From positions 1 to 26,517 of the forward strand of contig SFIM01000038.1 in NCBI GenBank assembly GCA_004556155.1: a DNA stretch of 26,517 nt, given 5' to 3'. Made by a program: the position numbers and the translations under genes. Shown here piece by piece: positions 1 through 21,943 of the stretch (position 1 is its first letter; the number at the start of each line of letters is the position of its first letter). The notes under the pieces were generated by a model that saw nothing but the letters and a program-made list of their open reading frames with translations, was not told the origin of the DNA and did no database searches. The stretch is from Clostridiales bacterium (GTDB lineage: Bacteria > Bacillota > Clostridia > Christensenellales > Aristaeellaceae).

Positions 1-135
1 CTACTGCCTTACGGCAAGCGCGGGTTTCGGGCGGCAATTTACAAAATTGCGCGCCCTCAGCCGCCTGCGGCGGCGCTATGGCTCCAAGAAAGTACCGTAA
101 CCTTCTCGTCTCCTTCGTCTCCCTCGTCCCCTCCG
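1..135. repeat. Partial or interrupted copy of the modular palindromic intergenic repeat (half terminal hairpin plus C-rich outer arm), preceded by other small hairpins
   Basis: 81-103 GCTCCAAGAAAGTACCGTAACC is the right half of the hairpin GGTACTTTCTTGGAGCCCAAGAAAGTACC seen intact at 6578 and 9857. The C-rich tract at 104-135 mirrors the G-rich tracts at 9830, 11781 and 14921. On the minus strand the element starts directly after the araC-type stop codon (136-138). Confidence 0.7.
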
Positions 136-2381: not shown

Positions 2382-3010
2382 GGGGAGTACGGGGGAACGG
2401 TGGGAACGTTACTTTCTTCAGGGAAGAAAGTAACAAAGAACCTGCGTGTGACGTAAAAGTCAATTGAATTAAGCTGGGAGTGGCCCTGGCCACCTGGCCA
2501 CCCGCCCCCGTGGCAGGGAAAAACTCAAATCGCTCGGTTCGGAGTAAACTCCAACCGGGCGATTCTTCATTTTTCCCCTTCGGTCGTGCTGCGCACGCCC
2601 TGCGCTGATCTGCGATCAGCGTGCCACGGGGGGTGTAGTTGGGTGTGGCGAACAAGCGCAGCGTCTAATGATAGTTGGACAGAATGGCCACCAAAAGGCT
2701 TCTCCTTGAGGAGAGGCTCCGCCGTAGGCGGTGGTGAGGTGTAGGCTACGAAGTAACCGTTGGCAAAGTATTTATAAAGGATAACGCGGCGGCGGCTACA
2801 CCTCATCAGTCAGCTCTCGCTGACAGCTTCTCCTCAAGGAGAAGCCCAGGCTGTCGAAAAAACTTTTTCGACAGCCTGCCGATGCAAGTCAGCTAAAGCA
2901 GACTTGTATCGGGAACGTCATTTTCTTGTGAGCCTGCGGCTCACGGCCAGAAAATGACAAAGGAAGCAGCCTGACGGCTGCTCCTCGCACCGCGCATGTC
3001 GCTGCTCTGC
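2382..3010. repeat. Composite repeat locus: left half of the modular palindrome, inverted central module (2697-2846) and hairpin-train module (2848-3006)
   Basis: G-rich tract at 2382-2407. Terminal hairpin GTTACTTTCTTCAGGGAAGAAAGTAAC at 2408-2434. The arm matches 9886-10075. 2697-2846 is the reverse complement of 10159-10310. 2848-3006 matches 18076-18234 with 4 mismatches. Confidence 0.85.
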
Positions 3011-3125: not shown

Positions 3126-6100
3126 ATGCCGCAATGGACGCAGGCGCAGCGGGAGGCCATCGACGCGCGCAACAGCGAGCTGCTGGTCAGCGCAGCGGCA
3201 GGCAGCGGCAAGACGGCCGTGCTGGTGGAGCATGTGCTGCAATTGCTGCGCGAGGGCGGGCAGATCAACCGCCTGCTGATTATCACCTTCACCCGTGCTG
3301 CGGCGGCGGAGCTGCGCGAACGCCTGATCGCCGCGCTGGATGCGGAGGCGGCGGGCAACGCGCATCTGCGCCGGCAAATGCTGCTGGCGCGCCGCGCGCA
3401 GATCAGCACGCTGCATGTGTTTTGCCATCGCGTCATTCGCCAGCATTTTCAGGCGGCGGATGTCGATCCCATGGCCAAGGTGGGCGAGAATACCGCGCTG
3501 GAGCCGCTTTTGCAGCGTGCGCTGGATGAAAGCGTGGAGGAGCTGTGCCAGTCCGATTTCCCCGACGCGCAGGCGCTGACCAGCCAGTACCAGGATGCGC
3601 AGATCGTCGAAATGGCGCGTCAGCTATACACCTTCCTGCGCGCGCAGGCCGATCCGGAAGCGTGGCTGAGCCAGCACATGGCCGATCCCGCCGGGGCCGG
3701 GCTTGCGCCCTTCCTGCTGATCCTGCGCAAGGAAGCGCTGCTGTGCCTGGAGGGCGCGGAGCAGCTGAACGATCAATGCCTGCGCCTGCTGGAGCTGCCC
3801 GGCGCGCCCGTGCATCTGCTTCCCACCGCGCAGGCCGATCAGGCGCTGCTGGCCGCTTTGCGCGATGCGCTGCGGCAGGATACCCTGCCTGCGGGCGAAT
3901 TGCGCTTTGCCGTCAAGGCACGCGCGCCCAAGAACGCGGATTTTGACCCCGCGCTGGCCGATCGCTTTACCTCCCTGCGTGACCGCATGAAGGAGCTGGC
4001 CAAGCAGGCGCGCGCCATGGTGCCCGCCGATATCGATCAGGCACGCGCCGAGGTGGCCGCCACCCTGCCCGCTCTGCGCGCGCTGATCGGCCTGGTGCAG
4101 GCCATGGATGCGCGCTATGCGCAGTACAAGCAGGAGAAAAACCTGCTGGATTATGGCGATTTGGAGCATTTGGCCCTCAAGGCGCTGGATGACGCGCAGG
4201 TGCGGCAGAGCGTGGCCGAGGGCTACGATGCGATCTTTGTCGATGAGTATCAGGATGTGTCGGCCATCGAGGAGGCCATCGTCCGCCGCGTGCACAATGA
4301 AAACAACCGTCTGTTCATGGTGGGTGACGTCAAGCAGTCCATTTATCGCTTCCGGCTGGCCGATCCCACGCTGTTTTTGAGCAAATATGAGCAGTTTGGC
4401 AGCGAAAAGAAGGCCGTTTCGCGCCGCATCCTGCTGAGCCGCAATTTCCGTTCGCGCGGCAATATCCTGGCTGCCGTCAACTGCGTGTTTGCCCGCGCCA
4501 TGCGCCGCGGCGCTACCGAGATTGCCTATGACGACGACGCGGCCCTGCACGCGGGGCTGGAAAGCACGGGCGACCCTGCCGTGCAGCTGCATATCATCAA
4601 CGACGATACCCAGGAGCCCGCGCCGGACGCGCAGGAGGAGGGCGACGATGCGGGCGAGGCGCGCAAGGGCTGGATGTACGAGGCGCAGCTGGCCGCGCGG
4701 CTGATCCGCGAGCAGGTGGGCCATCCCATCCGGGATAAGAACGGCGAGCGCGCCCTGCGCTATCGGGATTGCGTGATCCTGCTGCGCTCCGCCAGCGGCC
4801 GCGCGCCGCTGATTGCCAAGATTCTGGCCAGCGAGGGCGTGCCTGCCTACAGCGACGCCGACGCGCAGTATTTTGACCTGCCCGAGGTGCGGGATGTGAT
4901 GAACGTGCTGCGCGTGCTGGACAACCCCTATCAGGATGTGCCGCTGCTCAGCGCCCTGCGCTGCCCGTGCTTTGGCTTCACCAGCGCGCGGCTGGCCGAG
5001 ATCCGCCTGCGCGATGATACGCGGCAAAAGCCCTTCTATCAGGTGTTTTTCGCCCTGCGGGAGCAGGAGGAGGATGTGCGCGCAGCCTGCGAACGGCTGG
5101 ATACATGGCGCTTCTGGGCGCAGCATCTGCCCACCGACCGGCTGCTGTGGCGCATCCTGTCGCAGTCCGGGCTATACGCCCTGGCCGGGGCGCAGCGGGA
5201 TGGCGCGGCGCGGCAGGCCAATCTGCGCCTGCTGTGCGAGCGCGCGCAGGCAGACGGCGCGCGGGCTTCGCTGCATGATTTTCTGTCCGTCAGCGATCTG
5301 GCCAACCGCACGGGCGATGCGGGCGCGGCGCGCGAATTGGGCGAAAACGACGATGTGGTGCGCATCATGACGCTGCACAAATCCAAGGGGCTGGAGTTTC
5401 CGCTGGTCATCCTGATGGAGCTGGCGCGCAATTTCCGCATGCCCTCGGACGGGGAGCTGCTGCGCACCGACGCGCAGGCTGGCCTGGCCCTCAAGCGCGT
5501 GGACGCCGAGCGCCGCGTGACCGGGCACACGGTGGCTGGGCGGGCGCTGGCCTGCAAGCAGGCGCGGCAGATCAAGGCGGAGGAAGCGCGGCTGCTGTAC
5601 GTGGGCATGACCCGCGCGCGGGAGCGGCTGATCCTGCTGTCCTCGCCGCGCAGCATGCAGGGCGTGGCCGAGATGCGCGATATGCCCGAGGGCGATTACG
5701 CGGCGGGCTGCGCGCGCTGCATGCTGGATTGGGTGGTGCAGGCTGTGGGCGAGGGGCTGCGGACGGGGCGCGACACGCTGTTCACGGCGGCCAATGGCAG
5801 CCTGTGGGATCTGCGCTATCATGGCAGCGCGGAGTTCAGTCAGCGCTTACCGCAAGAGGAAAAATTTTTCATTCCGGATTTGTCCGAGCCGCCTTCTGCC
5901 GATTTCTGCGCGCAGATGGCGCGTCCGCCGCGGCAATCGCAGCTGCAAAAGACCAGCGTGACGGCACTTCTGCGCGGCGCGGTCTGGACGGAGGATACCG
6001 AGGAAACGCCCGAAAGCAAGCGAAAAGCGCTGCATTTGGATACGATGCCGCCTGAACTTCCGCCGTTTTTGGCTGGAACGCAGCTATCGGCGGCCGATCG

Positions 6101-6569
6101 CGGCACGGCGGCGCACAAGGCGCTGGGAGCGCTTGATTTGTCCCTGCTGCGCGGCGCGGAGGCTTTGCCGGCAGCAGTGAACGCGCAGCTTGCTGCGCTG
6201 TCGCGTCGCGGCGTGCTGACGGCGGAGGAGCTGGCGGCCATCGATCCCGGCGACATCCTGGCCTTTTTGCGCAGCGATATGGGCGCGCGGATGCTGGCCA
6301 GCCCGCGCGTGCAGCGCGAGTGGGGTTTCTGCCTGCGGGATGGCGATCTGCTGGTGCAGGGCGTGATCGATCTATGCTTCCTCGAAAACGGCGCGTGGGT
6401 GCTGGTGGATTACAAGACCGACCGCTGCCCCGCCGAGGAGCTGCCTGCGATGTACGGCGATCAGCTGCGCTGGTACGCCCGCGCCCTGCGCGAGATCACC
6501 GGCCTGCCGGTGCGGTTTGGCGGGCTGTACAGCCTGCGCCGCCGGACGCTTGTGCCGGTGGAGGTATAA
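3126..6569 (+). CDS. addA: ATP-dependent helicase/nuclease subunit A (AddA/RexA type: UvrD-like SF1 helicase plus C-terminal PD-(D/E)XK nuclease)
   Basis: Start set at MPQWTQAQ (ATG 3126) behind AAGGGGGGA. Walker A AAAGSGKTAVL, DEYQD Walker B, VGDVKQSIYRFR, TLHKSKGLEF and VGMTRAR helicase motifs. C-terminal GVIDLCF...VLVDYKTD RecB-type nuclease motif. Confidence 0.88.
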   Translation: MPQWTQAQREAIDARNSELLVSAAAGSGKTAVLVEHVLQLLREGGQINRLLIITFTRAAAAELRERLIAALDAEAAGNAHLRRQMLLARRAQISTLHVFCHRVIRQHFQAADVDPMAKVGENTALEPLLQRALDESVEELCQSDFPDAQALTSQYQDAQIVEMARQLYTFLRAQADPEAWLSQHMADPAGAGLAPFLLILRKEALLCLEGAEQLNDQCLRLLELPGAPVHLLPTAQADQALLAALRDALRQDTLPAGELRFAVKARAPKNADFDPALADRFTSLRDRMKELAKQARAMVPADIDQARAEVAATLPALRALIGLVQAMDARYAQYKQEKNLLDYGDLEHLALKALDDAQVRQSVAEGYDAIFVDEYQDVSAIEEAIVRRVHNENNRLFMVGDVKQSIYRFRLADPTLFLSKYEQFGSEKKAVSRRILLSRNFRSRGNILAAVNCVFARAMRRGATEIAYDDDAALHAGLESTGDPAVQLHIINDDTQEPAPDAQEEGDDAGEARKGWMYEAQLAARLIREQVGHPIRDKNGERALRYRDCVILLRSASGRAPLIAKILASEGVPAYSDADAQYFDLPEVRDVMNVLRVLDNPYQDVPLLSALRCPCFGFTSARLAEIRLRDDTRQKPFYQVFFALREQEEDVRAACERLDTWRFWAQHLPTDRLLWRILSQSGLYALAGAQRDGAARQANLRLLCERAQADGARASLHDFLSVSDLANRTGDAGAARELGENDDVVRIMTLHKSKGLEFPLVILMELARNFRMPSDGELLRTDAQAGLALKRVDAERRVTGHTVAGRALACKQARQIKAEEARLLYVGMTRARERLILLSSPRSMQGVAEMRDMPEGDYAAGCARCMLDWVVQAVGEGLRTGRDTLFTAANGSLWDLRYHGSAEFSQRLPQEEKFFIPDLSEPPSADFCAQMARPPRQSQLQKTSVTALLRGAVWTEDTEETPESKRKALHLDTMPPELPPFLAGTQLSAADRGTAAHKALGALDLSLLRGAEALPAAVNAQLAALSRRGVLTAEELAAIDPGDILAFLRSDMGARMLASPRVQREWGFCLRDGDLLVQGVIDLCFLENGAWVLVDYKTDRCPAEELPAMYGDQLRWYARALREITGLPVRFGGLYSLRRRTLVPVEV

Positions 6570-6923
6570 GGGGTTACGGTACTTTCTTGGAGCCCAAGAA
6601 AGTACCAAAGAAGGCTGCGTTGTAGACGAAAAAGTCAAATTAATAAAACTGGGAGTGGCCCTTGCCACCTGCCGCCCCGCCCCGTGGCACGCCGATGCAA
6701 TCGGCGCGGGCTAGCGAAGCCAGACCATAGGGGAAATATTCAAGGGAACGGATGGCGCTTGCGCCGATCCGGGCACGCAGAATTTTCCCTGCCACGGGGG
6801 GCGGGTGGCCAGGGCCACTCCCAGTTTTATTCAAGCAGCTTTCACGTCACACACAGATTCTTTGTTACTTTCTTCCCTGAAGAAAGTAACGTTTCCCTCG
6901 TTCCTTCGTCCCCCTATCTCCCG
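6570..6923. repeat. Complete minimal copy of the modular palindromic repeat (about 354 bp imperfect hairpin)
   Basis: Starts at the base after the addA stop (6567-6569). Terminal hairpins at 6578-6606 and 6864-6890. The arms ...AAAACTGGGAGTGGCCCTTGCCACC... and ...GGTGGCCAGGGCCACTCCCAGTTTT... are inverted repeats. C-rich tract at 6891-6923. Confidence 0.85.
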
Positions 6924-6931
6924 AAAAAGGC

Positions 6932-6960
6932 TTGACATTTCGCGCCAAATTGCGTACCAT
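6932..6960 (+). promoter_or_regulatory. Candidate sigma-A promoter of nagB
   Basis: -35 TTGACA (6932-6937), 17-nt spacer, -10 TACCAT (6955-6960), immediately after the repeat ends. Confidence 0.5.
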
Positions 6961-9169: not shown

Positions 9170-9829
9170 ATGCTGTACAAGGTCAGCGATCTGTTTGATT
9201 TAACGCATACGCGCGCGGCGGAGCTATTGGAAAAGTGCGAGTATCCGCACGAGGTGCTGCCGCGCATCAAGCCTTTTATTCTGGCGCTGGGCGAAACGCT
9301 GCCCATCAGCGAATTCTTGCATCCTTCGCCCACGGTATGGATTGCGCGCGACGCGGTGGTTGCGCCCACGGCGTGCCTGGGCGAGTGCATCATCATCGAT
9401 CACGGCGCGGAGGTGCGCCACTGCGCCTACATCCGCGGCAGCGCGCTCATTGGCCGCGACGCGGTGGTGGGCAACAGCACGGAGCTGAAAAACGTGATCC
9501 TCTTTGACAACGTGCAGGTGCCGCACTACAACTATGTGGGCGACAGCGTGCTGGGCTACCGAGCGCACATGGGCGCGGGAGCCGTTACCAGCAATGTCAA
9601 GGGCGATCGCCAGCCGGTGGTGGTGCATCGCGGCAGCGAACGCATGGAGACCGGCCTGAAAAAGCTGGGCGCGATGCTGGGCGATTACGCCGAGATCGGC
9701 TGCGGCGCGGTGCTCAACCCCGGCGCAGTCATCGGCCGCGGCGCGCAGGTATACCCCCTGGTCAGCGTTCGCGGCACCGTCCCCGCCAACTGCATCCACA
9801 AGGGCGGCAGCGTTGTGGAGAAGCGGTAA
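9170..9829 (+). CDS. Stand-alone left-handed beta-helix (hexapeptide-repeat) acyltransferase resembling the GlmU C-terminal acetyltransferase domain
   Basis: Starts 2 nt after the glmM stop. Hexapeptide-like repeats (IGRDAVVGNSTELKNVILFDNVQVPHYNYVGDSVLGYRAHMGAGAVTSN ... GDYAEIGCGAVLNPGAVIGRGAQV). No N-terminal nucleotidyltransferase domain. Confidence 0.65.
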   Translation: MLYKVSDLFDLTHTRAAELLEKCEYPHEVLPRIKPFILALGETLPISEFLHPSPTVWIARDAVVAPTACLGECIIIDHGAEVRHCAYIRGSALIGRDAVVGNSTELKNVILFDNVQVPHYNYVGDSVLGYRAHMGAGAVTSNVKGDRQPVVVHRGSERMETGLKKLGAMLGDYAEIGCGAVLNPGAVIGRGAQVYPLVSVRGTVPANCIHKGGSVVEKR

Positions 9830-10628
9830 GGGGGGACGAGGAGACGGGGAGGTTACGGTACTTTCTTGGAGCCCAAGAAAGTACCAAAGAAGGCTGCGTG
9901 TGACGTGAAAGTCAAGCTGATAAAACTGGAAGGCGGCACTGCCGCCCCCCGTGGCAGGGAAAAACTTGAATCGCTCGGTCTGGAGTAAACTCCGCCCGAG
10001 CGATTCTTTATTTTTCCCCTATGGTCTGGCTTCGCCAGCCCTGCGCTGATCTGCGATCAGCGTGCTACGGGGCGTAATTGGGTGCGGGAATTAGACTTAG
10101 CTGATTGCGATCGTTGTGAAGAGAAGCCAAGTTTCTTGAAAATCGCACGACAAAAAAAGCCTTCTCCTTGAGGAGAAGGTGGCGAATGCAGTGAGCCGAA
10201 TGAGGTGTAGCCGCCGAAGCGGCGTAATCCTTATATTGCTTTGATAACGGCTGCTTCGCAGCCTACACCTCACCACCGCCTACGGCGGAGCCTCTCCTCA
10301 AGGAGAAGCCTTTTGGTGAGTGCACCTTTCAACTATCACCAATCGCTGTGCAGAGGTTCCGCAGCTACTCAACACGCCCCCGTGGCACGCCGATTTTAAT
10401 CGGCGCAGGGCTGGCGAAGCCAGACCGAAGGGGAAACATTCAAGTGGACGGATGGCGCTTGCGCCGATCCGGGCACGCAGAATTTTCCCTGCCGCGGGGG
10501 CGGGGCGGCAGTGCCGCCTCCCATTTTAATTCAACTGACTTTCACGTCACACACAGGTTCTTTGTTACTTTCTTCCCTGAAGAAAGTAACGTCCCCCCTT
10601 CGTCCCCCTCCCCTCGTTCCCCGTCCCC
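9830..10628. repeat. Largest, nested copy of the modular palindromic repeat (about 0.8 kb)
   Basis: Starts at the base after the stop at 9827-9829. G-rich tract at 9830-9856. Terminal hairpins at 9857-9885 and 10564-10590. Central module at 10159-10310. C-rich tract at 10591-10628. The left and right arms are imperfect inverted repeats. Confidence 0.88.
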
Positions 10629-10713
10629 TTTTGGGAACCGCCGCGGGCATTGGCAAAACAGTTGAAACATTTTTGTGCATTTATGCAGTGCTTTATTGCG
10701 AGAAAGTTACACT

Positions 10714-11076
10714 TTATCCACACTTTAGGGATAATTTACGGGGAAAAGTTGTGGATAACTTGGACAACAAAGTGGGGATAACTTTCACTATCCACAGCGG
10801 TTTTCCACCGTTAAAATGAAAAATTCAGGAAAATCGGTACTTTTCCCACTTTTTTCGGTGGATAACTATGTGGATAATGTGGATATCTCCCCTTTTGCTG
10901 TGGATATGCACCCATCCATGCAGTGTATACACCCACAGCGGTGGATTTCTGCGCAAATGCCGCCGGTTTTCCCCATCTGTGGGAAGGAACGTGAATATTC
11001 ATGCATATATGATGCATATTCACGCGACGCCGCGCATAGGCTGGTGGGGAAAAGGTGGGGATAAGCATGTGGAAAA
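10714..11076. promoter_or_regulatory. DnaA-box cluster (10 boxes with at most 1 mismatch to TTATCCACA)
   Basis: Perfect boxes: 10714-10722 (+), 10750-10758 (-), 10869-10877 (-). One-mismatch boxes: 10773-10781, 10788-10796, 10857-10865, 10878-10886, 10899-10907, 11056-11064, 11068-11076. An AT-rich stretch at 10801-10856 lies between the box groups. Confidence 0.8.
10992..11021 (+). promoter_or_regulatory. Candidate forespore (sigma-G-like) promoter of cwlD, lying in an inverted repeat
   Basis: TGAATA (10992-10997), 17-nt spacer, CATATTC (11015-11021), compared with the sigma-G consensus GHATR-N17/18-CATxHTA. The same bases form the inverted repeat GTGAATAT...ATATTCAC (10991-11023). Confidence 0.3.
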
Positions 11077-11780: not shown

Positions 11781-12199
11781 GAGGCGAGGGGGGAACGAGG
11801 GGGACGTTACTTTCTTCAGGAAAGAAAGTAACAAAGAACCTGTGTGTGACGTAAAAGTTAATTGGATTAAACTGGAAGGCGGCACTGCCGTTTTGTGCCC
11901 CGTGGCAGGGAAAATTCGCGGGCCCGGATCGGCGCAAGCGCCATCCGTCCCCTTGAATATTTCCCCTATGGTCTGGCTTCGCCAGCCCAAGGGGGAAAGC
12001 AGGAAGCGAACGGAGGAAAGCTTGCTTTCATCCGGGCGGTTCAGGCTTTCACCTGCCACGGGGGCATACAGACGGCCAGGGCCACTCCCAGTTTAAAACC
12101 AGCAGCTTTTCCGTCCACAACACAGGTTCTTTGTTTCTTTCTTGACTCAAGAAAGAAACGTCCCTCCCCCGTCCTCCCTCGTCCCCCTCGTCTCTCTCT
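11781..12199. repeat. Copy of the modular palindromic repeat with mixed arm variants
   Basis: Starts at the base after the cwlD stop (11778-11780). Terminal hairpins at 11806-11832 (GTTACTTTCTTCAGGAAAGAAAGTAAC) and 12133-12159 (GTTTCTTTCTTGACTCAAGAAAGAAAC). C-rich tract at 12160-12199. An inner module is shared, inverted, with 15056-15118. Confidence 0.85.
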
Positions 12200-12224: not shown

Positions 12225-12253
12225 TTTACATTTTCGCAATGCTGTGATAGAAT
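12225..12253 (+). promoter_or_regulatory. Candidate sigma-A promoter of the wall-protein gene
   Basis: -35 TTTACA (12225-12230), 17-nt spacer, -10 TAGAAT (12248-12253) preceded by TGTGA. Confidence 0.5.
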
Positions 12254-12280
12254 GAGATGACTACAAAAGGGGGTCTTTTT

Positions 12281-14866
12281 ATGCGCCGCTTTATCAAGCG
12301 TTTTTTGCCTACTCTGCTCTGCGCGCTGCTGATCGCCCAGGGCGCGCTGGCTTATACCACGCTGCGTCCCGGCGATAAGGGCGCGGATGTGCTGCGCATG
12401 CAGCAGGCGCTGTCCGCGCTGGGCTACACCGTCACATGCGACGGCTCCTTCGGCACGCAAACGTACACCGCCGTCTATAACTTTCAGAACGATTACGGCC
12501 TGAAGGTGGATGGCAAGGCCGGCGATCAAACGCTGACCAAGCTGTACGAATTGTACAACAGCATGTCCACCAAGCCCGGCGGCAGCCAGGGCGGCGCCTC
12601 CACGGGCACGCAGACCCCGCCCGCCACGGTGTATTGCGCCAACGGCGGCAGCCTGAACGTGCGCCGCGGCCCCGGCACCGGCTATGCCGCCTTCTATCAA
12701 ATCCCCAACGGCGCAACGGTGAATGTGCTGGAGCGCGGCAGCAAGTGGTGCCAGATCAGCTACGATTCCACCGTGACTGGCTATGTGATGACCTCCTTCC
12801 TGCGCTTTTCGCAGGATACGCCCGTGGTCACGCCCTCTCCCGATACCAGCATGGAAACGGCCTATGTTTCCTGCGCGGACGGCGGCAGCCTGAACCTGCG
12901 CCAGCGCCCCGTATCGGGCGGGAAGATCCTCACCCGCGTGCCCAACGGCACGCAGCTGCGCGTCACCCGCGTGGATGGCAAGTGGTGCTATACCACCTAC
13001 AACGGCCAGTCGGGCTATGTGATGAGCAGCTTCCTGTATTTCGCCTCCGTCCCCGCGCTGCCCACCCCCACGCCGGTCATCAGCCCCACGCCCGTGCCCC
13101 CCACCGCCGGCAGCGATGCGCTGACCGCCCGCGTGCAGCCCGCCAACGGCGGCAGCCTGAACCTGCGCCAGCGTCCGGCCTCCGGCAATAACGTGATCGC
13201 GCAGATTCCCTACGGCACGGTGCTGAGCGTCACCCGCATCGACGCCACCTGGTGCCTGACCACCTATAACGGCCAGGCCGGCTATGTGATGAGCAAGTTC
13301 CTCACCTTCTACGGCGGCGCGGTCACGCCCACGGCCACCCCCACGCCCAGCGTGAACCCCGGCACCGAGCTGCTGCCGGGCTATGTATACTGCGCCAACG
13401 GCAAAAAGCTGAACCTGCGCTCCGGCCCCGGCCTGACCTACGACGTGCTGTTCAAGATTCCCAACGGCGCGGCCGTCACCGTCACCCAGCGCCTTACCGG
13501 CTGGTACTGCGTATCCTATGAAAGCTATACCGGCTTTGTCAACAGCGATTACATCGTGCTCAGCGGCGGTGCGCCCACCGTGCCCTCCGTGGCCACGCCC
13601 ACGCCCGTGCCCTCCAGCGACAGCACCATCCATTACGGCGAGCTGCGCTACGCCACGGTCAATACGGTGAACAACTCCCTGAACGTGCGCAAGGTCCCCG
13701 GCGGCCGGCAGATCGGCTCCTTCCAGAAGGGCAGCCGCGTGGTGGTATCGCAGATCCTCACCGTGGACGGCGTGGAATGGTGTGCGGCCTATCAGGGTGG
13801 CCTCAGCGGCTATGTGCAGCGCCAGTACCTGGTGCTGGATGCGCGCGTGACCCCCGCCCCCACCACGCCCGACACCGCCTACGACACCTCCATCCTGGTG
13901 CGCAACCTCAAGCTCAACAGCACCGGCGCGGATGTGCGCCTGGTGCAGACGCGCCTGGTGGAGCTGAACTACCTCTCCTCCGCCAACGGCACCTACGACT
14001 CCGCCACGCAGACGGCAGTGAAGCGCTTCCAGCAGCTGCACGGCCTGAGCCAGGATGGCGTGGCCGGCCCCAACACGTTTAAGCTGCTGTTCTCCTCCAC
14101 GGCGCTGCCTTACAGCACCGAGGCCTCCAACTACACCAGCTACCTGATCGACTATAACGAATCGGCCAACGAGGTGCGCACCAAGGCCATTCAGCGCGCG
14201 CAGCTGGCGCTATCCAACCTGAACTACAACGTGGCGACCGACGGCAAATTCAACGAGGCCATGCACGACGCGCTGGTTGCCTTCCAGCTGCGCAACGGCA
14301 TCACGGCCACGGGCGTGCTGGATGCGGCCACGCAGGCGCGCCTGTACTCCGGCAAGGCCAACGACGCGGCCACCGCGCCGCGCGAATACCTGGCCGATAA
14401 CGCGGGCTACACGGCCAATCCGCCCAAGGCCAGCGATGTAAAGCTGCTGCACTGGTACAACACGGTCAAGCCCATGATGAGCAGCGGCACGGCCTTTACG
14501 GTATACGATCCCGACAGCGGCTTATCCTGGAAGCTGCAGGTGCTTTCGCCCGGCCGTCACTGCGACAGCCAGCCCGTCACCCTGCAGGATACGCTGATCA
14601 TGCAGAAGGCCTTTGACGGCAAGAGCAGCTGGAACATGCACATCGTCTATGTGCAGCTGCCCAACGGCACCTGGTGCATGGCCGGCATGCACAACCGCCC
14701 GCACCAGAGCAACGGCATCCTGGGCAACGGCTTCGGCGGCCATCTGTGCGTGCACTTCCTGCGCGATATGGACGAGACCAAGAAGGCCGATCCTGTGACC
14801 GGCGTGCAGTATCAGAACCTGCTGCGCGACGCCTGGTACAACCTGACCGGCGAAAAGATCAACTAA
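12281..14866 (+). CDS. Secreted cell-wall-binding protein: signal peptide, PG_binding_1 domain, five SH3b repeats with Pro/Thr linkers, two more PG_binding_1 domains, and an unassigned C-terminal domain
   Basis: Start at MRRFIKRFLPTLLCALLIAQGALA (ATG 12281) behind AAAGGGGG. Five repeats of the type GGSLNLRQRP..G..I..IP.G..L.V.....WC.TTYNGQ.GYVMS.FL. PG-binding motifs occur three times (YTVTCDGSFGTQTYTAVYNFQNDYGLKVDGKAG and two later copies). Confidence 0.8.
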   Translation: MRRFIKRFLPTLLCALLIAQGALAYTTLRPGDKGADVLRMQQALSALGYTVTCDGSFGTQTYTAVYNFQNDYGLKVDGKAGDQTLTKLYELYNSMSTKPGGSQGGASTGTQTPPATVYCANGGSLNVRRGPGTGYAAFYQIPNGATVNVLERGSKWCQISYDSTVTGYVMTSFLRFSQDTPVVTPSPDTSMETAYVSCADGGSLNLRQRPVSGGKILTRVPNGTQLRVTRVDGKWCYTTYNGQSGYVMSSFLYFASVPALPTPTPVISPTPVPPTAGSDALTARVQPANGGSLNLRQRPASGNNVIAQIPYGTVLSVTRIDATWCLTTYNGQAGYVMSKFLTFYGGAVTPTATPTPSVNPGTELLPGYVYCANGKKLNLRSGPGLTYDVLFKIPNGAAVTVTQRLTGWYCVSYESYTGFVNSDYIVLSGGAPTVPSVATPTPVPSSDSTIHYGELRYATVNTVNNSLNVRKVPGGRQIGSFQKGSRVVVSQILTVDGVEWCAAYQGGLSGYVQRQYLVLDARVTPAPTTPDTAYDTSILVRNLKLNSTGADVRLVQTRLVELNYLSSANGTYDSATQTAVKRFQQLHGLSQDGVAGPNTFKLLFSSTALPYSTEASNYTSYLIDYNESANEVRTKAIQRAQLALSNLNYNVATDGKFNEAMHDALVAFQLRNGITATGVLDAATQARLYSGKANDAATAPREYLADNAGYTANPPKASDVKLLHWYNTVKPMMSSGTAFTVYDPDSGLSWKLQVLSPGRHCDSQPVTLQDTLIMQKAFDGKSSWNMHIVYVQLPNGTWCMAGMHNRPHQSNGILGNGFGGHLCVHFLRDMDETKKADPVTGVQYQNLLRDAWYNLTGEKIN

Positions 14867-14883
14867 AAACCCTGGCATATGCC

Positions 14884-14918
14884 GCGCCCCCTTCGCTGTG
14901 AAGGGGGCGCGCGCTTTT
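14884..14918 (+). terminator. Intrinsic terminator
   Basis: Stem GCGCCCCCTT (14884-14893) pairs with AAGGGGGCGC (14901-14910), then GCGCTTTT. Confidence 0.75.
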
Positions 14919-14920
14919 AT

Positions 14921-15142
14921 GGGGGAGGACGGGGGGACGGGGGAGAGACGGTACTTTCTTGAGTCAAGAAAGTACCAAAGAACCTGTGTTGTGAACGGGA
15001 AAGCTGCTGGTTTTAAACTGGGAGTGGCCCTGGCCACCTGCCGCCCCGCCCCCGTGGCAGGTGAAAGCCTGAACCGCCCGGATGAAAGCAAGCTTTCCTC
15101 CGTTCGCTTCCTGCTTTCCCCCTTCGTCTCCCCCGTCCTCTC
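14921..15142. repeat. Half copy of the modular palindromic repeat
   Basis: G-rich tract at 14921-14949. Terminal hairpin GGTACTTTCTTGAGTCAAGAAAGTACC at 14950-14976. One arm plus one inner module, and a C-rich tract ending about 15142. There is no second terminal hairpin. Confidence 0.8.
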
Positions 15143-18042: not shown

Positions 18043-18337
18043 AAGCGTTCCTGAGCAAATGGCTCAGGACGCTTCAGGCTGTCGAAAAACCTTTTTCGAC
18101 AGCCTGACGATGCAAGTCAGCTAAAGCGGACTTGCATCGGGAACGTCATTTTCTTGTGAGCCTGCGGCTCACGGCCAGAAAATGACAAAGGAAGCAGCCT
18201 GACGGCTGCTCCTCGCACCGCGCATGTCGCTGCTATATGAAGGGGCTGCGGCCCCTTCATGCATCCCAAGAGTTTAAGCGAGACTTTTTTAACAATCTGA
18301 AGCGTTCCTGAGCAAATGGCTCAGGACGCTTTTTTAT
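18043..18337. repeat. Hairpin-train module (18076-18234) plus extra hairpins, flanked by a 32-bp direct duplication of a terminator hairpin
   Basis: AAGCGTTCCTGAGCAAATGGCTCAGGACGCTT occurs at 18043-18074 and 18300-18331. The interior contains the hairpins AGGCTGTCGAAAAACCTTTTTCGACAGCCT, GATGCAAGTC..GACTTGCATC, CGTCATTTTCT..AGAAAATGAC, GCAGCCTGACGGCTGC and GAAGGGGCTGCGGCCCCTTC. 18076-18234 is about 97% identical to 2848-3006. Confidence 0.85.
18300..18337 (+). terminator. Intrinsic terminator (second copy of the duplicated hairpin, the one that keeps the T-tract)
   Basis: Stem AGCGTTCCTGAGC pairs with GCTCAGGACGCT, followed by TTTTTT (18331-18336). Confidence 0.7.
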
Positions 18338-21595: not shown

Positions 21596-21943
21596 TGGTG
21601 GAGGCGAGGGGAATCGAACCCCTGTCCGAAGACCGAATTACAGGATTTTCTCCGAGCGCAGGACGCATTTTGGATTTCCCTTGCCCCAGCGCCTGCGAAC
21701 GGGCTATGGGGCTTGGTAGCTTCATTTTACCGGCCTCGCCGCAAAGCTTAGGCGGGCCTGTTCCTCACATCAATGACGCTGCTTGCCAAAGCCGTGAGCG
21801 CTTTGGGGCAACGCGCAGCCATTAGGCCGCGAAAGCGTAACTGTTATTGTCAGTTAATTTTAATTTCCCCGTTTTTACGAGGCCAGGGTCCTCGGCTCGC
21901 TTATCCTGTCCTTCGCCATCCCCGTCGAAACCAGAACGCCCCC
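21596..21943 (-). ncRNA. ssrA: tmRNA (transfer-messenger RNA)
   Basis: On the minus strand the RNA reads 5' GGGGGCGUUCUGGUUUCGACGGGG ... GGACAGGGGUUCGAUUCCCCUCGCCUCCACCA 3'. The acceptor stem has the G3:U pair. The internal tag frame GAC AAU AAC AGU UAC GCU UUC GCG GCC UAA encodes ...DNNSYAFAA-stop. smpB lies directly upstream. Confidence 0.95.

Follow-up and report, generated by a model that had tools for sequence, protein, structure and literature searches.

A mosaic family of nested intergenic palindromes, probably of the REP, BIME and REPIN kind, in uncultured gut Clostridia

The REP and BIME elements of enterobacteria and pseudomonads are extragenic hairpin units that, together with short motifs, are assembled into mosaics. 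They are found in the spacers of convergent or tandem genes, for the most part on the downstream side of coding regions, have covarying stems and a high copy number, and have been proposed to act in transcription termination and mRNA stability (PMC3733652). Here we describe a repeat element from a 26,517-nt stretch of DNA (contig SFIM01000038.1 of the Clostridiales assembly GCA_004556155.1; hereafter, the window). Positions 9830–10628 of the window, hereafter the focal element, are best read as a full-length copy of a mosaic, nested-palindromic intergenic repeat family of the REP, BIME or REPIN kind, larger and more deeply nested. The family shares each of the REP/BIME traits just listed, and the roles that we propose for it are the same two: its repeated palindromes are extragenic, lie between convergent or tandem genes and form a mosaic of units. 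It differs in being larger, with more units (at least six module types, in copies of 0.3–0.9 kb), in its periodic purine/pyrimidine end tracts and four-way-junction module, in the absence of a GTAG tag, and in its Clostridia host. REPs are recognized by an unpaired GTAG or CGTC beside a hairpin of 20–40 bp; the terminal stems here are 12–13 bp, and the family lacks this signature.

REPINs, like the family described here, consist of two inverted hairpin-bearing halves that form one larger hairpin, and they are non-coding, intergenic and long-lived (PMC3116915, PMC3337134). The head-to-head arms of our element likewise place two inverted units in a single hairpin. REPINs measure about 100 nt, have a single type of hairpin and are linked to a flanked RAYT gene, whereas the copies here are nested mosaics. 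We know of no RAYT in this Clostridia lineage. The CGTC-tagged REPs are also mostly head-to-head dimers and, as here, have no dedicated transposase on record (Di Nocera et al., 2013, PMC3733652). They are found mainly in alpha-proteobacteria and have stems of 8–9 bp, loops of 4–5 nt, a tag that is not paired and a CCA tail (PMC3733652), whereas the terminal stems here are 12–13 bp long and closed by triloops. On the C-rich strand the terminal stem is followed by GTC, GTT or GTA, with the preceding C paired, and the (C)GTC that follows about half of the terminal hairpins is a loose likeness. Membership in the CGTC-tagged REPs was considered and rejected, the sequence tag that marks the described REP superfamilies being absent.

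BOX and RUP of Streptococcus pneumoniae and the Correia/NEMIS elements of Neisseria are modular or inverted-repeat intergenic elements of 100–350 nt that are co-transcribed with their neighbours and may carry terminators or processing sites; Correia duplicates a TA target. The present family has no sequence relation to these elements, and no target duplication was seen where an occupied and an empty site could be compared between two species (loci L011 and L072, below). PATEs, derived from IS200/IS605, have hairpins near their ends, produce no target duplication and insert at a fixed position next to a hairpin. These three traits are shared, but here the whole element has inverted ends, which IS200/IS605 lack, and no TnpA is among the annotated genes of ten strain loci. 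These loci (L001–L010) come from ten long contigs that are 97–99% identical, with about 20 kb of the locus taken from each. Palindromes of the Volvox type, in organelle genomes, also insert into one another. Short selfish palindromes have proliferated in the intergenic DNA of the organelle genomes of Volvox and its green-algal relatives (PMC2670323). They belong to organelles and to a different kingdom, are unrelated in sequence and have no link to stop codons.

The focal element is an imperfect palindrome of about 0.8 kb, a near-complete hairpin made of smaller hairpin modules. As single-stranded DNA (ssDNA) it folds at -263.5 kcal/mol, against -131.7 ± 5.5 kcal/mol for shuffled sequences (z = -24), and it matches its own reverse complement at 67% identity over 847 alignment columns. 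One arm comprises, in order, a purine/G-rich tract, a terminal hairpin, a linker, a small hairpin and the four-way-junction module, and a copy is built of two such arms placed head to head around a central module with two hairpins, whose outer tails are T-rich (Table 1). The TAA stop codon of the upstream hexapeptide-repeat transferase gene (9827–9829) directly abuts the element. Arm pairs with arm at 9894–9948/10502–10556 (84%), 9946–9963/10483–10500 (94%) and 10010–10050/10399–10439 (90%), and the G-rich and C-rich end tracts pair at about 75–100%. In the junction module, which measures 123–125 nt, a closing stem CCCGTGGC/GCCACGGG encloses a long hairpin (H1) and two short ones (H2 and H3). 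A spacer separates the left junction module, which ends at 10072, from the central module (10155–10316), the edges of which are formed by two CTTCTCC..GGAGAAG hairpins. An earlier reading of this DNA, made from its letters alone (hereafter, the sequence-only reading), had proposed the same layout, and every feature that it listed is present where it was placed. Its description of the focal element as an archetype was overstated: the copy is not unique but one of several in a full-length class with 0.7–0.87 kb between the terminal hairpins. Two open reading frames (ORFs) inside or over the element (10348–10665 and 10511–10819) fail the criterion for gene calls, which uses GC content at third codon positions (GC3), and are regarded as spurious. 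FtsK/SpoIIIE-type polar motifs and Chi sites were dropped on the reasoning that a palindrome cannot be polar.

The hairpins keep their pairing while their sequence changes, as the sequence-only reading had claimed, and the stem variants that it named are all real. Counted over the family, the terminal stems occur as GTTA/TAAC (41), GGTA/TACC (41), GTTT/AAAC (6) and GATT/AATC (2), so that 90 are matched and 10 mismatched; the pairs that close the loops also covary. Conserved bases flank this hairpin, RRAC before the stem and CAAAGAAC after it. Similarly, CGCTGATC/GATCAGCG and GCCGAT/ATCGGC are two alleles of hairpin H3. The junction module folds at -58 to -75 kcal/mol into one long and two short hairpins. 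Across 34 non-redundant junction modules (alignment A1), 98.2% of cells are paired, and there are 81 two-sided changes, compared with 28.5 ± 3.5 after shuffling and at most 13 in controls in which the pairing was slid. A covariance model built on this species (R1) has full-length matches in sheep, buffalo and other metagenome-assembled genomes (MAGs), and the primary sequence of these matches is largely different. The cross-species alignment (A2) has 96.8% of its cells paired, two-sided changes at 26 of 30 pairs, and 295 two-sided cells against 88 ± 10 when shuffled and 25–54 in slid controls; this alignment was fitted to the model and so leans towards structure, although the margin is still large. 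The order of one long and two short hairpins is kept across species. The hairpin architecture is thus maintained by compensatory change, both within and between species.

The copies have a marked preference for the downstream side of genes. With genes called by a simple ORF/GC3 heuristic, less than 5% of the bases of the family fall inside genes, and copies occupy 25 of 46 convergent spacers (54%), 25 of 115 tandem spacers (22%) and only 2 of 44 divergent ones (4.5%). At 63 of 98 non-redundant ends (64%), a long, high-GC3 ORF has its stop codon no more than 50 nt upstream of the terminal hairpin, compared with 8.6% at random positions, and the purine tract reaches the stop codon (gap of 5 nt or less) in 59 of 67 stop-associated ends. 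Family-wide, the end tracts are 52% G and 32% A, have a median length of 28 nt and are composed of (R5-6)ACG units, with ACG recurring every 8–9 nt. A G-quadruplex was rejected as a general feature of the G tract, the canonical four-run motif being found in only 10 of the 98 tracts. A copy usually begins at the stop codon and stops just short of the next promoter or of the next gene's end; promoter-like hexamers, at 6932–6960 and 12225–12253, follow two of the copies within 10–30 nt. The shortest distance from stop codon to terminal hairpin is 12 nt, which is about the reach of a terminating ribosome. Liang, Rudd and Deutscher are said to have found in 2015 that REP hairpins less than about 15 nt from a stop codon stall ribosomes.

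Some of the hairpins resemble intrinsic terminators. In the central module, one hairpin reads CCTTCTCCTCAAGGAGAAGG CTTTTTTT on the - strand (10179–10160), and its opposite number ends in GCC TTTT on the + strand (around 10309–10316). T-rich outer tails are found on about 84% of hairpins of this type (hpA) over all loci; the small GC hairpins have weaker T tails, and the terminal hairpins do not fit the pattern of a GC stem-loop followed by a T run. Under strict terminator criteria, 12 of 23 elements contain at least one forward site, against 2 of 115 shuffled sequences, and these sites are located beyond the centre or close to the far end of the element. A transcript entering from either side would therefore be expected to cross one arm and the centre before it meets a predicted terminator.

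These observations bring up a host function at the level of RNA, in which the arm, and above all its junction module, would be a functional structured 3′ untranslated region (3′ UTR): a block to 3′ exonucleases, a binding site for RNase III or another protein, or a terminator or insulator, with the palindromic layout of the DNA serving the genes on both sides. We regard a cis-regulatory RNA of this sort as possible but not probable. It would account for an element that starts at the stop codon and leaves at least 12 nt before its first hairpin, for the depletion of copies from divergent promoter spacers, for terminator-like hairpins after both arm and centre, and for a junction architecture that is conserved across species while its sequence turns over. 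Moreover, with arms oriented by their G tract, RNA of the G strand folds better than its complement by 6.8 kcal/mol per 250 nt, and G.T mismatches outnumber A.C ones by 48 to 29. That bias could, however, be an effect of composition, and other features sit poorly with an RNA function: the same modules are found facing either way with respect to the upstream gene, no asymmetry separates sense from antisense, and the near-perfect stems, mostly closed by triloops, are what DNA palindromes would be expected to have. One gene keeps its own canonical terminator in front of the element (the half copy at 14921), and alleles are shuffled freely, with modules lost or gained, between strains whose flanking proteins are identical.

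This shuffling is most apparent at the site after the hexapeptide gene, which holds a different mosaic in each of the ten strains. An arm is missing in three of them, hairpin alleles are swapped, an extra 110-nt piece is present in one centre, and in three strains the terminal hairpin has a three-hairpin module of about 100 nt in its loop. This loop module is found at nine distinct loci and on four stem alleles, always at one position in the loop and in one polarity. The hairpins of the junction module each come in two to five discrete alleles, which are found in all combinations, and copies in general differ by 10–25% and are mosaic. Divergence of copies between strains is bimodal, about 0–2% or 8–13%, compared with 2.5–3.7% at four-fold degenerate sites, which indicates replacement by other copies rather than point mutation.

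Between species, one pair of loci shows a site with and without the element: L011 is filled at 5253–6150 (about 0.9 kb) and L072 is empty at 3604–3621. The stop codon is unchanged and no target duplication is visible, in flanks that are only 75–81% identical; two other pairs (L015 with L052, and L076 with L073) are less clean for this purpose. The inverted repeats at the ends of the element are its G/C-rich tracts, of variable length. At the empty site (L072 3605–3621), a perfect 10-nt palindrome, CTGTATACAG, directly follows the stop codon.

The family could be a classical non-autonomous transposon (REPIN, PATE or MITE) mobilised in trans by a Y1/HUH enzyme, either a RAYT or an IS200/IS605 TnpA, which would recognise the terminal ssDNA hairpin and the conserved bases beside it; nesting would then be insertion into loops. 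The conserved structure and flanks of the terminal hairpin agree with this, as do the lack of a visible target duplication at the pair of sites just described, the arms joined head to head as in REPINs and the loop module that keeps one position and polarity on four stem alleles at nine loci, and CGTC-type REPs offer a precedent for a family without a known transposase (PMC3733652). We nevertheless hold a transposon of this kind only as a tentative explanation. No Y1 transposase and a single rve-family insertion sequence (IS) are annotated in the 20 kb strain loci, no master copy was found among 42 paired ends, and copies that are mosaics differing by 10–25% do not look like a recent burst. 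Deletion between direct repeats, together with recombination, can account for the differences within the species, and the hairpin with its loop module could be one inherited allele rather than the product of repeated insertions. The rve-family integrase gene just mentioned (L009 15843–16757) shares its intergenic region with family copies and is the only transposase-like gene in the ten strain loci. A second inserted gene was seen in L076 (3887–4813), where a low-GC gene, which from its sequence motifs we take to encode an Mrr-type restriction endonuclease, stands between relA and dtd at a site that is empty in L073. It is followed, at 4814–5052, by two halves of the central module joined tail-to-tail. 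This gene was rejected as a partner enzyme of the family and is regarded as an unrelated restriction-gene insertion.

The family might also be no more than a by-product of replication and repair, with neither a dedicated enzyme nor a host function. Quasi-palindromes would be perfected by template switching, and hairpin tips cut by an SbcCD-type nuclease would be repaired from other copies, so that nested palindromes grow and are homogenised. Such a process could yield near-perfect stems in the form of discrete alleles, extra modules exactly at hairpin loops, and the bimodal divergence among strains. It also agrees with the 10-nt palindrome at the empty site and with the short form at 6570–6923, which is obtained from the long form of strains L004 and L008 by removing what lies between two direct CCCCGTGGCA repeats. 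It would leave unexplained the linkers, which are conserved but not palindromic, the periodicity of the purine tract, the contact with stop codons and the conserved order of long, short and short hairpins, and we consider it improbable.

The explanation that we favour, with moderate confidence, is a hairpin-driven repeat acting at the level of DNA, which is tolerated in the 3′ flanks of genes and in part serves them as a bidirectional terminator or 3′-UTR cassette. The family would spread and be homogenised as DNA by way of hairpin-forming single strands, through ectopic recombination or gene conversion and through slippage between short direct repeats of the kind that palindromes generate; an enzyme that recognises ssDNA hairpins is a possible further route. 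Copies would be tolerated downstream of genes only. There, transcripts would include the G-strand arm and the centre as a long structured 3′ UTR and would terminate at the embedded terminator-like hairpins, in which case the element would also act as a bidirectional terminator or insulator cassette. We infer both the transcription and termination and the spread, whether by recombination or by an enzyme, from conserved structure. The stop-codon position and the terminator-like hairpins favour the 3′-UTR or terminator role, while a repeat acting at the DNA level is favoured by the symmetry of the palindrome, by the shuffling of alleles and by insertions into loops; triloops, near-perfect stems and modules in both orientations likewise look like DNA palindromes. 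The sequence-only reading had named a REPIN-like element and a 3′-UTR or terminator element as candidates, and both stand, probably not as exclusive alternatives.

A number of results weigh against this explanation. The compensatory pattern could come from palindrome correction by template switching and not from selection. With strands defined by the direction of the upstream gene, neither is favoured (387 against 404 G-U pairs, and no difference in minimum free energy); once arms are oriented, single mismatches are G.T in 48 cases and A.C in 29 (p = 0.04), a weak bias among related copies which, given that strand composition also differs, is a hint at most. Only about one element in two has a terminator-like hairpin that passes the strict criteria. 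No autonomous or ORF-bearing longer copy was found in a small sample of about 0.7 Mb of loci with 42 paired ends; the larger end-to-end spacings are ordinary genes between two separate copies. Within the species we saw no clean recent insertion of a whole element, all polymorphism being internal, and the annotated genes of L001–L010 include no Y1_Tnp, although no genome-wide search for an enzyme was made.

A bolder version of the hairpin-driven repeat would make the family a self-propagating palindrome system. Modules would home into hairpin loops and junctions, by means of an enzyme acting on ssDNA hairpins or of tip breakage and copy-repair, and would build super-palindromes of 0.3–0.9 kb that have come to occupy the space between stop codon and promoter at many genes of an Oscillospiraceae clade of the gut, where these would serve as terminators or 3′ UTRs; the junction module would be the core, read as RNA or as extruded DNA. 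We think this doubtful.

Table 1. Coordinates of the focal element, the gene before it and the other family copies in the window.
Feature	Position	Strand	Basis or remark
Upstream gene, hexapeptide-repeat transferase	9170–9829	+	Pfam Hexapep/LbH
Purine/G-rich end tract of (R5-6)ACG units	9830–9856	+	Sequence
Left terminal hairpin, 13-bp stem, triloop	9857–9885	.	Pairing 9857–9869/9873–9885, 100%
Conserved linker CAAAGAAGGCTGCGTGTGACGTGAAAGTC..., pairing with 10521–10563	9886–9927	.	Pairing search
Small GC hairpin GGCGGCACTGCCGCC, A/T tract on outer side; terminator-like on - strand	9928–9950	-	
Four-way-junction ('cloverleaf') module	9948–10072	+	RNAfold -75 kcal/mol; model R1 133 bits; covariation
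Central module	10155–10316	.	Bounded by pairing 10155–10176/10293–10314 (95%)
Hairpin hpA of central module	10160–10179		T7 tail on - strand
Inner stem of central module	10201–10223 with 10250–10272		
Hairpin hpA' of central module	10290–10309		TTTT tail on + strand
Four-way-junction module, right arm, inverse orientation	10378–10498	-	Model R1 118.8 bits
Small GC hairpin, then CCATTTTAAT; terminator-like on + strand	10502–10530	+	
Right terminal hairpin, 12-bp stem, triloop	10564–10590	.	Pairing 10564–10575/10579–10590, 100%
C-rich end tract, complement type of the G-rich tract	10591–10628	+	Sequence, pairing
End of another copy	1–135	-	Adjoins stop of AraC-type gene (136–1011, - strand)
Copy from stop of GH4 gene; left arm and central module	2382–2846	+	
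Short-form copy from stop of AddA-type gene; one four-way-junction module only	6570–6923	+	
Copy from stop of amidase gene; fusion of two different arms	11781–12199	+	
Half copy: G tract, terminal hairpin, part of an arm, C-rich tract	14921–15142	+	

Five further copies or part-copies lie in the window and, with the focal copy, cover 2396 nt, or 9% of it. The sequence-only reading had located these copies correctly and put their total slightly too high, at about 2.7 kb; one copy, which it extended from 2382 to 3010, holds as far as 2846, beyond which a different repeat (2847–3006) stands in place of its right side. At the left edge of the window, 80–135 is the 3′ half of a terminal hairpin with its C-rich tract (family similarity match at 80–123, - strand), and 1–79 is part of a loop module of about 100 nt inserted in the terminal hairpin of that copy. 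The orthologous site of the short form at 6570–6923 is occupied by the long form in L004 and L008. The half copy at 14921–15142 sits just after the upstream gene's own intrinsic terminator (14883–14911 and a T tract). Family density is higher in the strain contigs, with 8–9 copies per 20 kb and 18.7% of bases. The repeat found at 2847–3006, 160 nt long and rich in hairpins, is unrelated to the family; it is fused to the truncated right side of the copy at 2382–2846, recurs at 18075–18234, the two copies being 98% identical, and contains a perfect palindrome CAGGCTGTCGAAAAA.TTTTTCGACAGCCTG.

Copies of the family also mark an apparent rearrangement. In all ten strains, the sequence of window 9874–10942 lies in reverse complement on the upstream side of the AraC-type gene, the gene after the hexapeptide gene encodes a methyltransferase, and synteny with the window stops inside the element. 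Relative to its flanks, the segment 136–9829 (AraC-type gene to hexapeptide transferase) is inverted in the window with respect to the strains, with breakpoints inside two copies; in the strains the copies that flank this segment are about 0.7 kb long, about 98% alike and inverted. Either the window carries a 10 kb inversion produced by recombination between copies, or it contains a misjoin in the repeat. Since the gene order of the window departs from all ten strain contigs exactly at the repeat, the join could be wrong, and the 0.8 kb palindrome might itself be suspected of being an assembly artefact. That is very improbable: the element is present at 96–99% identity in ten independent metagenome assemblies, among them contigs of 0.2–3.3 Mb, and related copies are found in eight separate genome assemblies.

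The protein encoded by the upstream hexapeptide gene occurs unchanged on thousands of human-gut metagenome contigs, from which the ten strain contigs were drawn. A strict scan for the terminal motif in 185,579 species, one genome per species, returned 69 loci in eight genomes, where we estimate from the information content of the pattern that about one chance match would be expected. All eight assemblies are MAGs of uncultured Clostridia/Oscillospiraceae from human, sheep, buffalo or rumen samples. The copies are therefore not confined to this one locus but are spread over many contigs and several species. Searches of Rfam 15, by gathering threshold and by E-value, gave no match to the focal element (the best E-value in 9700–10900 is 0.13, with a score far below threshold), which together with literature searches agrees with the sequence-only reading, in which no named Rfam or repeat family was recognised. 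BLASTN found no match to the focal element among 50,697 phage and 72,556 plasmid records, and a pattern scan of IMG/VR returned four contigs, none of them informative: one is a chromosome of the same species, one a low-GC chance match, and two have the end motif only. Among the papers searched, by subject as well as by sequence words taken from the element, none describes the family. It is thus apparently undescribed and limited to a small clade of uncultured gut Clostridia (Oscillospiraceae-like).

The family is unusual in its size and depth of nesting, its stop-abutting periodic purine tracts, its conserved four-way junction, its cassette-like alleles, its loop-nested module and its local density of 9–19%. 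Such repeat families have been little described in this phylum. Here, non-coding palindromes take up 9% of the window, and in ten strains of a prevalent bacterium of the human gut they account for about 19% of the corresponding 20 kb region. Their contact with stop codons, their terminator-like hairpins and their coincidence with the breakpoints of a 10 kb rearrangement beside a probable replication origin mean that they could affect gene expression and genome stability. They probably also affect how well such genomes assemble. With discrete alleles, loop-nested modules and a conserved junction, the family offers a natural case for studying how REP-like repeats arise, spread and become useful, and its terminal motif is a specific marker for the clade in metagenomes.

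The probable origin lies to the right of the focal element, where a cluster of DnaA-box-like sites begins after 86 nt and runs to the start of the amidase gene. Its 363 nt (10714–11076) contain ten matches to TTATCCACA with at most one mismatch, and the whole window has 14 such sites where 2.25 would be expected. In the strain contigs dnaN is 6–8 kb away from the cluster, and dnaA is not beside it. By its sequence, the cluster is probably oriC or a DnaA-controlled region. The only Rfam family above threshold in the window is the tmRNA gene at 21596–21943 (- strand), with the tag peptide DNNSYAFAA. Ahead of the half copy at 14921, positions 12257–14866 encode an 869-aa protein with repeated SH3 and peptidoglycan-binding domains; the gene has internal coding repeats of 237–267 nt, and at its 3′ end stands the canonical intrinsic terminator at 14883–14911.

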